From IMG/VR virus record IMGVR_UViG_2523533510_000012: a stretch of DNA of 61,895 nt; one strand, written 5' to 3'. The position numbers are program-made. Shown here piece after piece: positions 15,001-21,000 of the stretch. The DNA comes from a virus. Its lineage: Duplodnaviria > Heunggongvirae > Uroviricota > Caudoviricetes. The stretch's first letter is position 1; every line of letters starts with the position of its first letter.

Positions 15001-18000
15001 CTTGCAAAAATATTCGGCAACGGCAAAGGACGTAGTAACAGCGCGACCATTGGAAATGGTGATTTCAGGTTGAGAAAGGACTGGGATAGTAGCCATAATG
15101 GCAGCCTCCTTGATTGGTGATTGATAACCACCGCTGGAGGTAGCAAGCTCGCTGGCGGTGGACTGTACAGGGTTGCTACAACTGGCAATCAAGGGAACCA
15201 GCCCGACCGAAGTCGGCCCCATACAGCCCACCATTGATAAGATGTGCGTGTATGTCGATACAAAAAAAGACGCTGGCGCGTCTGTATCGCCTCGATTGTC
15301 AGCGGGGTAGCAATCCCGACACCCGTTTTATGAGGTGTTCGCCAAATATAGCCCCGACATCACACGCAGTCAATACCGTTCTTTCTCAGAAACGCTTTGG
15401 CGGTGCCGCCTGCACCCCAAAACATTCCCTGTATTGGTCAGCGCCAACTTCCTGCCAGTGTTGCCCGTTCTCACGCCGTTCTCGCTCTCGCGCGGGGATA
15501 CTCTCTCATCGACCGGATCGCACCCGATGATACAGCACGTTTACGTGTAGGGGTCTAAACAGGTCATTGACGCTGTAAAGCTCCAGATTGTTAAAGAGCA
15601 TTTTGCGGCGGGTTAAGTCGCGCCGTACGACTGATTTATGTAGCCCTGTGTAAGGGCGCGATGTTTCTGGCTTGAAATAAATATAACTTGCGGTGATTTT
15701 CATGTAAATACCGTTGGTGCTTTTTAAGGGCGAGAAATTATTACTTAACTGATTTTTAAAGTGATTTATTTTTTAAGGGGGCAGATAACAGGAGGGGATA
15801 TGCAAAGAAAAACCCGGCGCATGGGCCGGGCTATTTATCTGGTCCTGTTCTCATTCAGTAGAGTAGGGGCCAAGAAATCGCACTCCGTTGAAGTGAATAA
15901 GATGAGAAGGTGCATCAGCCACCCATACCTCTGTTTCCCATGCGATTTCACCAAGATATCGCCCCATGATGGAGCGATTTGGAAAAGCGGTCACATAGAC
16001 AAGTCCGGCTGTTGATCCGGCAAACAGCCTGGCAAGCTCAGCATGCCGCTTCCCATCAACCGGTCCATGACTGGTGACAGACTCAACCAGTAGCAGCCAG
16101 TTTTTCGCAGTAAAATGTAGCACCACATCTGGCATTTTACCGTGTGAATCCACATCAACACCTAGCCCGGCCAGCAGTGGAGCGTCGAAGTAGCCCCACT
16201 TTTCGCCAGTGTCGCCAGCATAGACCAGCACGCTACCCGGAGCAAAACGTGGGGCGAAGTCCTCTATTATGGCACGGATAAGTTCGCTGTGCTCGCCGGG
16301 ACTGAGGGTTATTTGCTGGCCCGCAGCAATTTCAACAGGGATACGATTCTGTTCGCGCTCCTTAGCATAGCGGGTAACCAGCGTTTCACGCTCGGCTAAA
16401 TAGGTTGCAAGGCTATCGTGCCATGCCGGGCTGCCGAAAGTGCGTAGCATGGACAGAGCAGCAGGTTCGATCTGATAAACAGCCTTCGGGCTGTTCACTG
16501 GGCGATCGGGCTTGTCCGGATTGTAGAGGGCTACTCCAGCAGCGCAGAACTGATGCATAGACTGGCGGCGGAATGTCTCACGAGTATTGGGTGCGTAGAC
16601 CTTGCCGTAGTGCTCCCGAACCCAATTCATGATTGGTGTAATGCCCACAAGCGGATTTTCCGCGTCGGCCCATGCTTTTCCCGGTGTGAGGTTCAGGAGT
16701 GCCAGCAAACACAAAGCAGAACGCTCATTCTGCTGCGCTCTGGGCAGGCCTAAGGATGCTATAATTTGCTGAGCGGCCTCAATATAATCATTTTGGTTGT
16801 TCATGCAGTCAGAGCTCCTAGCTTAGCGTCAATATGTTCTTGCGTGAGAGTTTCTTGTTGCATAGCCCACTTGCCAAGCTCTATCAGAGTGTCACGGCTT
16901 GGGTACTTAATCATCTTGAGGTCGGTTGCATTGACCTGTGTATGCCCGTTGAAGCGACGGAAATACTTATCCACTGCGGTAGTGTTCAGGAACACGGCCA
17001 AGCCACGGGCCAGCGCCTCGGGTAACCCATGTTTGTTCTCATGAAACACGTTCATGTGATTTTCAAATCCCAACACTGAATACTCACTGAAGGTAGCAGG
17101 ATCAACGACGCTTGCTACCACTCGGCGCTTTTCCTCCTTCGACGAGAAACGACGCACCACACAATAAAAACCGTTCGGGTAAAGCCACTTTTCTGTCTCG
17201 TCGTTGCGCATGATTGCGTTGGGTTTCTTCAAACCTTCCACAGGCCAGACAGTGCTACTCATACTCAAATGGCTCGGGTAGATCAGGGGAACAGTTCCTT
17301 CTTCTGGCATGCTGCGCAAATGAGCTTTCAGTCGGAAATCAACTATCGGTCCGGTCGATACCTTCACGCCAATATCAGCCAGCGAACATTGTACGGCAGA
17401 TGATAACTCAATGGTGCTTTTCTCGAGCGTGGTCGGCACATGAATAAACCGCTCCGAATCGTCCGGGTACACAATCTGGTCAAATGGGTGTTCGTAGGTG
17501 ACTAGGTCAAAAAAGCTATCATCGGTCGAAGTTGTGACTGTAACAGCCTCCTGACGGCCTCCACGCTCCAGGCGGATGATAATATTTTCCTGCAACACAT
17601 CGTCATCCCTGAAAGCTTTGCTACGTGATTCGAACAAATGAATATGGCGGATTGCTGCCCGCTCAAGTATGAAATTACGGAACGGACGGTAATACGGTCC
17701 GTTGCAGAAACTACGTGGGATTATGGCCACTATCTGCCCGCCAGGTGCAACCTCACCTACAGCCAGTGCAACAAAGGCGGAATACAGATTTACCGTCTCG
17801 ATACCGACAGTGCGAAGAGCCTGCCGGTGGGCTGACTGGCTATTGATCTTCTTGTAAGGCGGATTAAGTATTGCATGGGTATAACCTCGATCCTGTAGAC
17901 CTTCGGCGGTTGCCAGCTCAATATAATCCCCTTCGATGATGCGGGGCGTCACTCTCCTGTACCCGGTTAAGTGCTTCGCAAGGTGACCACACAGCTTTTT

Positions 18001-21000
18001 GTCGATTTCGTAGGCTGTTGCCTCGACAGACTCAAAGCCAAACTCGCCAACCAGCCAACGGTCGAGGAAGGCGCAAGACAGTGCGCCTAAACCAGCGCCT
18101 GCGTCCAGTAGACGGCAAGTTTTCATTGTGCTCGGTGGAAACAAGGAGGCCATAAAACGGGCCACGCCAGAAGGCGTCATGAACTGGCCGAACTCTGCTT
18201 TGTGTTTACGCGCGGTACGGGGAGACAGCTCGCGACGCACGCTGTCTGCGACGTCTAGCTTTTGAAGCATAACTAATCCTCTTTACGTGGCATGATGATG
18301 CCAACGTGCTTTTGACATCCTCCACATTCTTCAGGCGTGAAGGATGTCAAATCACTCTGTGAGCTCAATCAAAAGTCTCATCATTCCACTGCGATTTGAT
18401 GACCTTTCCGACAAACTGGCAGTTTTCGTTACACTCAATCATGTCGAATCGTGGGTTGAGCGGCTCCAGGTACGCTTTACCGCTCTCACGAATGAATCGT
18501 TTGAAGGTAAATTCATCGCCGTTCATTCGGGCCACGCAAAAATCGCCATCCTCGATTTCCCGTTCAGGGTCAACGAGTATCAGCATACCTTCAGGGAAGC
18601 TGGGTTTACCACCCTGCGGTGCGGTCATTGAATGCCCCTTGACCTCCAGCCAGAACGACCTGTCACTGGCTTTTGTGGTGGTGGAGATCCATTTAATCGC
18701 ATCTTTTGCGGTGTACGAAATATCATCCATTGAGAATGCGCCAGCTTGTACGCAGGAGAGTAACGGATATTCGTAAGCGGGGACACGAGTTAATGGCTCT
18801 TCAATTGCGAGCGCCATTTCTGCAATAGATTTTGCCAGGCTGGGACTGAAATCTCCGACCTTTACATTCAGTATCTTAGCAAGCTGTGCTGCGTGGCTGG
18901 CATTTATGGCGTTGATGCCAGCCATTAGCTGATTAACAGCGCTTTGGGTAACACCTAATTCATAGGCTAATGATTCCTGCGACAGGCCTAACTCTTTCTT
19001 TTTAGCGTTAAAAATACTTTTCAGACGCTTGGCGTCTTCCAGTTGCTCAGGGGTTAACGGTTTCTTTTTCATGTTCATACCATATCACCTTTGGTTATAT
19101 GTAATGAAATATCTGCGGTGTTGACATTTTAATAACTGTGCGTAATGATATGGGCATTTTGAAGGAGTCAGTTATGGCGATGAAAAAAGAGACCCTGGCT
19201 GATTACGTATACAGGTTCGGCCAAAAGAAAGCCGCTAAGGACTTTGGCGTGGCGCAGAGTGCAATCAGTAAAGCGCTTCTCGTCGGACGAGAAATATACG
19301 TCAAAACCTTTGATGACGGCACAGTTGAGGCGGAAGAGGTTCGTCCGTTCCCTGCGTTCGTAAGAGGCGATGATTAATCCTGGACACACAGCCCATCGGA
19401 GGTGTGAGTGAACAGGCAAATCAAAACGGTTATGCCCGAGCAGTACTGTGATGCTGATCGGGACTGGATACAGGAGCAATTGTTACAGCTAGACCCGACC
19501 ACCCGGGTAAAAATTGCAGCAGAGTACGCGAGAGTGTACCAGGAAGAGTGGGACAAGGAGCCTGTATCGTTCAGGAAGGGCAACAGGGCAAGACGGAGCG
19601 CCAACACCCGGTTACGGGTGTATGTCCAGAAGTACGCGAGAGCCAGCCGTGGCTGGATGCTTTCGCCAGTAGCGGTACGGAAGTTTCCCCCGACACCATG
19701 ATGGCGGTTAGTTGCGCTAGAGATAATTTCAAGTGCAACTAATTTCCTGAAAGGAAGCGAGGAGGGGGTAAGGGGGTGGAGTCGTTGGTAAGGCCTGTAT
19801 CCCTTGGCCTAGGCCAGAAGGCAGGTACATAGGTTAGGTAGATCACTGTATAAGCGCGCGATAGTTTCTGGTGAAATGATTATCGAGCTAACTATTGAGT
19901 GATAAACTATGTCGGCAGCAACCAAATCGGCACTGATCCGTACACTGAGCACTGTACCACTGAGAACAGAGGAGCGTTACAGCTTTCTGGCTGATGTTGT
20001 AACGATCCTTGAGTCACAGGGGATGCATGTGGCAAGCAATGTCACAGTAAGAATCGATGGCAGAAATTTCCGTGTTGATATTCTCGCAACAGCAAAAACT
20101 GGTGGGAGTGTGGCTATCGAGATCGATCGTAGCTCTCCGCGACCCCGCTCAGTCATGAAATTGCGTGAATTGGCACGTCGTGGCACTGAAGGCTTTGTGT
20201 TGCTTCGAATGCCAAAGAAACTGACCAGTTATAGCGATGCTGGGATCGATATCATCCCGGCGAATGGCAAGGGGGCGTCATGCTGAAAATCACCCCAAAC
20301 TTTGCTCAGGAGCGCGGTTTAAACCAGCTGCGGCACCAGTGGAAACAGCATCGCACGTACCTGATGTATGCACCCACTGGCTCTGGCAAAACTGGTCTTG
20401 CAGCATTCGTCACTGCCGGAATGGTTGAACGTGGTATGCGGGTGATGTTTGTCTGTCCGTACACCATCCTGCTGAACCAGACAGCGGAACGTTTCACCGA
20501 ATACGGTTTGCCGTGGGAAGAAATCAGTTTTGTATGGCGTGATCACCCTAACTATGACCCGTCACGACTGATTCAGATTGCCAGTGCCGACACGCTGATC
20601 CGTCGTGAGTTTCCTGACAACATCGATCTGCTGATCATCGATGAAGCACACATGAAGCGTCGTGCGTTACTTGAGGTTATCCGGGACAAAGATATCAGGG
20701 TTCTTGGGCTTTCCGGCACCCCGTTCGCAGCCTGGATGGGGAAGTACTACGAATGCCTGATCAAGCCTACAACGATTCGTGAACTTATTCAGCGTGGTGA
20801 TCTGAGCGATTATGAGTTTTTTGCCCCCTCAATGCCTGATCTGGCTGGCGTAAAAACCAGTAACACCGTATTTGGACGGGATTACAACGAGGAACAGCTC
20901 GCATCCATCATGGGGAGTTCGGATCTGGTTGGCGATATCGTCAGCAACTGGCTTGAGAATGGCGAGGATTTACCGACGATCTGCTTCTGCGTGAATGTGG

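Follow-up and report, generated by a model that had tools for sequence, protein, structure and literature searches.

The EcoGIII restriction-modification genes follow cI in the immunity region of an O104:H4-type Stx2a phage and border a candidate pL/OL

We analyzed a stretch of 61,895 nucleotides (nt) from a virus of the Caudoviricetes (IMG/VR record IMGVR_UViG_2523533510_000012; hereafter the window), and focus here on a restriction-modification (R-M) gene pair that lies in its immunity region, directly downstream from the repressor gene cI. The whole unit is read leftward, on the minus strand. The cI gene (18365-19078), annotated as such in phage P13374, encodes a protein of 237 amino acids (aa) with an HTH_3 domain (8e-10) and an S24 autopeptidase domain (Peptidase_S24, 9.5e-29), and a Cro-family gene is divergent from it, confirming that the repressor is of the lambda type. 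A hairpin with a stem of 16 base pairs (bp) directly follows the cI stop codon (18311-18351, minus strand; fold z-score -3.8), and 94 nt separate cI from the gene for the N6-adenine methyltransferase, M (16801-18270, minus strand; 489 aa). M is preceded by a short leader (18271-18310, minus strand) that carries its own Shine-Dalgarno sequence, AGAGGA. The endonuclease gene, R (15851-16804, minus strand; 317 aa), begins before M has ended: its start codon and the stop codon of M are interlocked in the tetranucleotide ATGA (16801-16804; junction …CTGACTGCATGAACAAC), and the R Shine-Dalgarno sequence, AGGAG, also lies within M. An intrinsic terminator (15811-15832, minus strand; an 8-bp stem with six GC pairs, then UUUUUCUUU) begins 19 nt past the R open reading frame (ORF) and closes the cI-M-R unit.

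Both proteins fall into R-M families. R contains two Pfam domains, both full-length and far above the cut-offs, BsuBI_PstI_RE_N (PF17728, 1.2e-54, residues 7-143) and BsuBI_PstI_RE (PF06616, 4.6e-61, residues 155-307); its layout is an N-terminal helix-turn-helix domain followed by a C-terminal catalytic domain. It also matches the PADLOC REase_II model (1.6e-168). M matches the PADLOC MTase_II model (5e-248) and the Pfam Eco57I methylase domain (37.5 bits, cut-off 25.3). It carries DAGAGLG (motif I, residues 56-62) and NPPY (motif IV, residues 136-139), an order that places the S-adenosylmethionine-binding motif I before the catalytic motif IV. ORF calls gave no extra ORF on the coding strand within or beside the R-M cassette, and thus no C-protein gene.

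Across the cI-M-R-cro segment (window 15700-19400; 3,701 nt), nucleotide identity is 100% to Escherichia phage P13374, which is the Stx2a phage from the O104:H4 E. coli outbreak of 2011, as well as to phages phiON-2011 and TL-2011c and to the chromosome of E. coli O104:H4 C227-11. As an independent check, we compared rare codons: the endonuclease gene has AUA at codon 15, CCC at 21 and AGA at 22, the methyltransferase gene has CUA at 5 and CCC at 17, and all five match the REBASE entry for EcoGIII as tabulated in PMC6456624. Because of this identity and of the five matching codon positions, we identify the pair as EcoGIII, with genes that are the same, without difference, as those of prophage PhiStx104/P13374 in C227-11 (Fang et al. 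2012, Nat Biotechnol 30:1232). We conclude with high confidence that the minus-strand pair is the EcoGIII type IIP R-M system (recognition sequence CTGCAG, N6-methyladenine [m6A] on the A), a lysogenic-conversion cargo in the immunity region of a Shiga toxin 2a (Stx2a) prophage of E. coli O104:H4 and related Shiga toxin-producing E. coli (STEC); its expression would come from leftward cI transcription reading on into M and R. The R-M system was found in 98 phage records, nearly all of them Stx-converting, and the 3.7-kb segment was matched, always on the chromosome, in 147 of 5,426 complete E. coli genomes (in 122 of them over at least 80% of the query length).

These results bear out an initial annotation of the window, which had proposed a PstI/BsuBI-like R-M pair: the profile matches and the identity to EcoGIII of C227-11 agree with it, and every element of the layout that it had listed (co-orientation with cI, ATGA overlap, 317-aa ORF, DAGAGLG and NPPY motifs) is present. 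Profile searches returned R-M families for both proteins, and the rare codons agree with the tabulated EcoGIII entry. The R-M system and its position after cI have been described before, and we report nothing new about the R-M system itself.

The endonuclease family of R.EcoGIII is also that of PstI (Providencia stuartii) and BsuBI (Bacillus subtilis), and the three systems have the CTGCAG specificity, known from the literature, and m6A modification in common. They differ in gene arrangement: the PstI genes are chromosomal and divergently transcribed, whereas the EcoGIII genes stand in tandem, M then R, overlap by 4 nt, and form part of a phage cI operon. R is, in addition, a full-length homologue of SdaI (PDB 2IXS, E=1.2e-77), with which it shares the two-domain layout. 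SdaI recognizes the 8-bp sequence CCTGCAGG, and the lysine of its 'EAVKS' motif has been proposed as part of the active site. This motif (within 'LMEAVKSKGP') aligns to 'ESVTS' ('LVESVTSHGP', residues ~240-250) in R.EcoGIII, where the lysine is not conserved and a threonine stands in its place. As activity has been reported for R.EcoGIII, the role of the SdaI lysine may fall to a different one, such as that in 'TAKNW'.

That phage-borne EcoGIII hinders the entry of phages and plasmids, and that it marks the whole genome epigenetically, has been established since 2012, for the O104:H4 lineage, which is highly virulent, and for many other STEC lineages. As related by papers that cite Fang et al. 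2012, it methylates and cleaves CTGCAG and protects against a lambda-like phage and not against T4 (PMC6602927, PMC6597129, PMC4659465). Across strains, 98.8-100% of about 2,400-2,900 CTGCAG sites carry m6A, only in strains with this prophage (PMC6602927, PMC3893438): the fraction was 100% of 2,390 and of 2,434 sites in O111 lysogens (PMC6602927), and 98.8% in an O145 strain with the prophage R-M genes versus 0% in a strain without them (PMC3893438). The R gene in O145 and that of C227-11, which is reported to be biochemically active, are 100% identical (PMC3893438). Cloned EcoGIII cuts the conjugal entry of pESBL ~10^4-fold, and modified sites are left uncut (PMC7736820, PMC4288162).

Plasmids of Aeromonas, Pseudomonas, Citrobacter, Morganella, and E. 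coli carry homologues of the pair; aa identity is ~95% for R and 87% for M, and neither the lengths (317 and 489 aa) nor the ATGA overlap differ. The homology between plasmids and phage runs from ~40-45 nt upstream of the M start to ~15 nt past the R stop; these limits thus place the cassette at ~15836-18310. The recombinase-M-R units lie on broad-host-range plasmids (for example E. coli pG5A4Y413, Aeromonas media TR3_1 p1, and P. aeruginosa plasmids), with M-R placed after a serine-recombinase or rep gene and followed by an 82-aa ORF. In pG5A4Y413, M is preceded by the 3' end of a serine-recombinase gene (…TLYKHVGVITPRQ, then stop; C-terminus …KHVGVITPRQ). Alignment to this plasmid reveals a remnant of the same 3' end, …KHVGIIMPRK, in the cassette-derived leader of the phage M gene. 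Compared with the plasmid units, the phage copy thus keeps ~30 nt of the recombinase gene and is flanked by cI and the phage terminator. The leader also contains a small hairpin, TGGCATCATCATGCCA. A regulatory role for it, with compensatory changes in the plasmid version, was considered and rejected, as a coding remnant of the recombinase C-terminus is the simpler explanation.

Two further sets of phages help to separate cassette from backbone. The first is PhiR12_3, whose cI is 97% identical to that of the window and in which window positions 16168-18310 are replaced by ~160 bp of unrelated sequence (L003 4817-4978), so that M is gone and the last 100 codons of R are left. On the right, the replaced part stops where the cassette stops, at window 18310/18311. 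The second is the Lyz12581Vzw group (23 records), which has the R-M genes (95.7% identity) and the C-terminal domain of cI (94%) in common with the window and differs in the DNA-binding domain of cI and in cro. These comparisons assign two elements to the phage backbone and not to the cassette: the terminator that follows R, because it is absent from the plasmid cassettes and kept in Lyz12581Vzw, and the hairpin that follows cI, because it is conserved in Lyz12581Vzw and in PhiR12_3, which lacks M, and because the plasmid homology begins just downstream from it. The hairpin carries TTGACA in both arms. It was rejected as a terminator, having no U-tract on either strand, and as a promoter, since no acceptable -10 element lies 16-18 nt from a TTGACA arm. 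It may be an attenuator, a processing site or a stabilizer of the messenger RNA (mRNA), and may thus modulate read-through or mRNA stability.

How would the R-M genes be expressed in a lysogen? Leftward cI transcription, initiated at pRM during maintenance and probably at a pRE-type promoter during establishment, would cross the 94-nt gap into M and then R, and the transcript would end at the terminator, just short of pL/OL. M would be translated from its own Shine-Dalgarno sequence and R, downstream and overlapping through ATGA, from the same mRNA, so that the methylase would be made before or alongside the endonuclease. Host and prophage DNA would be fully methylated at CTGCAG, and unmethylated incoming phage or plasmid DNA would be cut. 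The M-then-R order with its overlap, a property of the cassette that is also seen on plasmids, plausibly biases establishment toward methylation first.

We infer both the co-transcription of cI and M from pRM and the translational coupling of M and R. The case for co-transcription is that the genes lie on the same strand, that only ~40 nt of cassette sequence precede M, that our promoter and terminator scan of the cI-M gap detected neither a promoter-like (sigma-70-like) site nor a canonical terminator, and that R-M is linked to the 3' half of cI in 98 of 98 phage records, across two immunity types. The sole canonical terminator of the unit is the one after R. In addition, the near-complete methylation of lysogen DNA implies that the R-M genes are expressed in the repressed prophage. 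Several points weigh against this reading. The transcript could be attenuated or processed at the very stable hairpin that separates cI from M, a separate weak R-M promoter missed by a consensus scan is possible, and a promoter-like site inside M (17606-17579) could yield R-only transcripts. Moreover, pRM of the O104:H4 phage BAA2326 is weak, with ~18 repressor molecules per cell (PMC5977221). The cI mRNA is reported to have no Shine-Dalgarno sequence (PMC5977221).

We consider it improbable that the R-M pair is an autonomous moron, transcribed from its own promoter independently of cI and placed after cI by an accident of insertion. The cassette is mobile, with relatives in Pseudomonas, Aeromonas, Citrobacter, and E. 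coli that sit on small plasmids and have the same M-R overlap, and a strong hairpin stands between it and cI. However, the ~40 nt of cassette sequence ahead of the M start are the tail of a recombinase ORF, and the cI-M gap lacks a sigma-70-like site in the scan. In the plasmid copies M begins 9 nt after the recombinase gene, which suggests that M is normally read through from upstream.

Two other explanations concern what the pair was selected for. Type II R-M pairs behave as addiction modules, as described by Kobayashi and colleagues, and it is conceivable that post-segregational killing is the main role here: prophage loss would dilute M, residual R would cut the cells' DNA, and the Stx prophage would be stabilized, with phage defence secondary. 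This idea, which we hold only tentatively, gains from the presence of a Panacea-domain antitoxin pair in the same slot of the Lyz12581Vzw group and from the occurrence of the homologues on small plasmids, where stabilization would be useful. However, the demonstrated function is defence against lambda-like phage and plasmids, and at least one relative, PhiR12_3, now lacks M along with two-thirds of R, which shows that loss is survivable and the module dispensable. We think it unlikely that the main role is epigenetic, with M.EcoGIII methylation reprogramming host transcription and R only enforcing the maintenance of M. According to the same papers citing Fang et al. 2012 (PMC6602927, PMC6597129, PMC4659465), deletion of the R-M genes in C227-11 alters ~1,951 transcripts (38% of genes), yet authors who cite the work have questioned how direct the transcript effects are. 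The deletion took out both genes, and CTGCAG sites displayed no evident promoter bias in what could be tested. Addiction and epigenetic reprogramming are plausible as additional roles of EcoGIII and are not exclusive alternatives to defence.

The position of the R-M genes invites comparison with the rexAB genes of lambda. In lambda, rexA-rexB, then OL and N, lie to the left of cI, and in the O104:H4 phage BAA2326 the R-M genes replace rexAB (Chakraborty, Clark, Mauro, Koudelka 2018; PMC5977221). A bsuBI system has also been described in the early regulatory region of the PST2 phage cluster, where operators could not be identified (Yin et al.; PMC4587872). Like rexA-rexB, the EcoGIII genes lie between cI and OL/pL, a candidate here, on the cI strand, with a terminator before pL, and both gene pairs are expressed in the lysogen and exclude other phages. 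However, EcoGIII acts by DNA cleavage with self-protection by methylation and not by abortive infection through membrane depolarization, and Pfam, NCBIfam, and PADLOC scans of M and R returned R-M families only, with no RexA or RexB homology. The resemblance to rexAB is thus positional and functional only. The initial annotation had assigned the pair to a rexAB-equivalent slot and regarded it as a defence cargo expressed by the lysogen. The position is correct, the comparison being already in print (PMC5977221), and published work on lysogen methylation of CTGCAG and on restriction of lambda-like phages and plasmids supports the defence role.

Is there an OL and a pL beyond the R-M terminator? 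The published O104:H4 phage BAA2326 was described as having "no readily identifiable OL or N gene" (PMC5977221). We started from OR. The OR region (19083-19147), between cI and cro, comprises three repressor operators and contains both pR, directed rightward, and pRM, directed leftward. The published footprinted sites were placed at 19132-19147 (OR1), 19109-19125 (OR2), and 19088-19105 (OR3). A palindrome, TATCACC-TTT-GGTTATA, lies at 19083-19099, and the promoter scan detected a pR-like site, TTGACA-17-AATGAT, at 19121-19149. In vitro, pRM is activated via OR2 and repressed via OR3, and the OR3- mutation, which lowers repressor affinity 15-fold, alters a TATAAC half-site (PMC5977221).

Past the terminator, the best leftward promoter-like site is TTTACA-17-TATATT at 15708-15680 (minus strand), and TATAACTTGCGGTGATT, at 15682-15698 over its -10 element, resembles the OR palindrome TATAACCAAAGGTGATA. 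A gapped operator pattern had six matches in the window versus 1.0 expected, and six were never reached in shuffles. When a weight matrix was derived solely from the footprinted OR1-3, the candidate OL ranked 6th of 61,879 positions, corresponding to ~0.04 sites expected by chance in the 630-nt interval. No relevant exact k-mer of at least 12 nt was common to OR and the region left of the R-M genes; operators are short and degenerate and emerged only with the gapped palindrome pattern. A second operator-like site at 15783-15801, with two mismatches, was rejected, as 104 window positions score as well with the OR-only matrix.

The Lyz12581Vzw group provided a further comparison, its repressor being of a different immunity type. 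Its homology to the window extends up to ~15673, and the two sequences diverge exactly at the candidate pL/OL. At the equivalent place, Lyz12581Vzw has a strong leftward promoter-like site, TTGACT-18-TATATT, whose -35 element is overlapped by AATAGCGAGACTAAT. Elsewhere in the 8.4-kb Lyz12581Vzw locus, this AATAG-N5-CTATT pattern recurs only once, within the OR of that phage. The operator patterns are exclusive: the window and Lyz12581Vzw each lack the pattern of the other. Together, the sequence comparisons support a candidate pL/OL at 15680-15708 and temper the earlier conclusion (PMC5977221) that an OL cannot readily be identified. The initial annotation had also proposed that a terminator closes the operon before a candidate pL; this, too, fits the terminator at 15811-15832, the OR-like operator overlapping a leftward promoter-like site, and the co-variation of the operator with immunity type in the sister phage group.

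In Lyz12581Vzw (L004), two additional genes (1970-2820, minus strand), which have their own terminator, separate the R terminator from pL. One encodes an antitoxin with a SocA/Panacea domain (156 aa, 4.5e-22), the other a 126-aa protein without family match. The pair appears to be another insertion of the toxin-antitoxin or defence kind in the R-M slot.

Downstream from the candidate pL, Rfam detected isrK (61.8 bits) and C4 antisense RNA (77.4 bits), above the gathering score and directly upstream of a Rha/Ash antirepressor-like gene; an sRNA-Xcc1 match lies upstream of a second gene, with an ORF6N domain. The Rfam matches to isrK, C4 antisense RNA, and sRNA-Xcc1 together occupy 15151-15338, 14232-14315, and 5936-6025 (minus strand), and the antirepressor-like genes, Rha/Ash-like and with an ORF6N domain, lie at 14449-15234 and 13519-14193 (minus strand). 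The ~1 kb called non-coding in the literature thus looks like an antirepressor control module of the P1 immI type (c4/ant), the first unit downstream from the candidate pL and in the place of the N gene. A tandem direct repeat (13514-13801 and 14444-14731; spacing 930 bp, 86% identity) gives the two antirepressor-like genes near-identical C-terminal halves. The window and P13374 both have the two tandem Rha/ORF6N genes downstream of the R-M genes, whereas the C227-11 RefSeq assembly has a single Rha gene; repeat recombination or assembly collapse could be the cause.

Taken together, the data lead us to slightly favor a joint view of the region. O104:H4-type Stx phages would have a conventional OL/pL beyond the R-M terminator, with a single strong OR-like operator over the -10 element, contrary to what has been published on the lack of an identifiable OL, and this pL would drive a P1 immI-like module (isrK and C4 antisense RNAs with antirepressor genes) and not N. 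The R-M genes would have been captured from a recombinase-linked plasmid module between the hairpin at the 3' end of cI and the terminator, in a slot that later took the Panacea antitoxin pair in the Lyz12581Vzw group. What we add to earlier knowledge is minor: a candidate OL/pL, the cassette boundaries, a plasmid origin that left a recombinase remnant, and additional genes in the same slot. These points may aid work on the easy induction of these Stx prophages.

The window contains 12 CTGCAG sites, all at or beyond 22168. The initial annotation had cited examples near 29596 and 37134; these sites exist, and their actual positions are 29598 and 37135 (2 and 1 nt away). Positions 1-22167, which run from the left flank through the early-left genes and the immunity region into the first part of the replication genes, have none. 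Avoidance of CTGCAG in these first 22 kb is not convincing, with P=0.005 if the interval is pre-specified and 0.06 for the longest gap anywhere. Farther to the right, three transfer RNA (tRNA) genes lie upstream of stx2 (24841-25089, plus strand), and downstream of it (26498-26757) Rfam detected STnc100 (207.7 bits) and AsxR, an anti-stx2 small RNA (88.1 bits); these RNAs, like the tRNAs, are known accessory RNAs of Stx2a phages.

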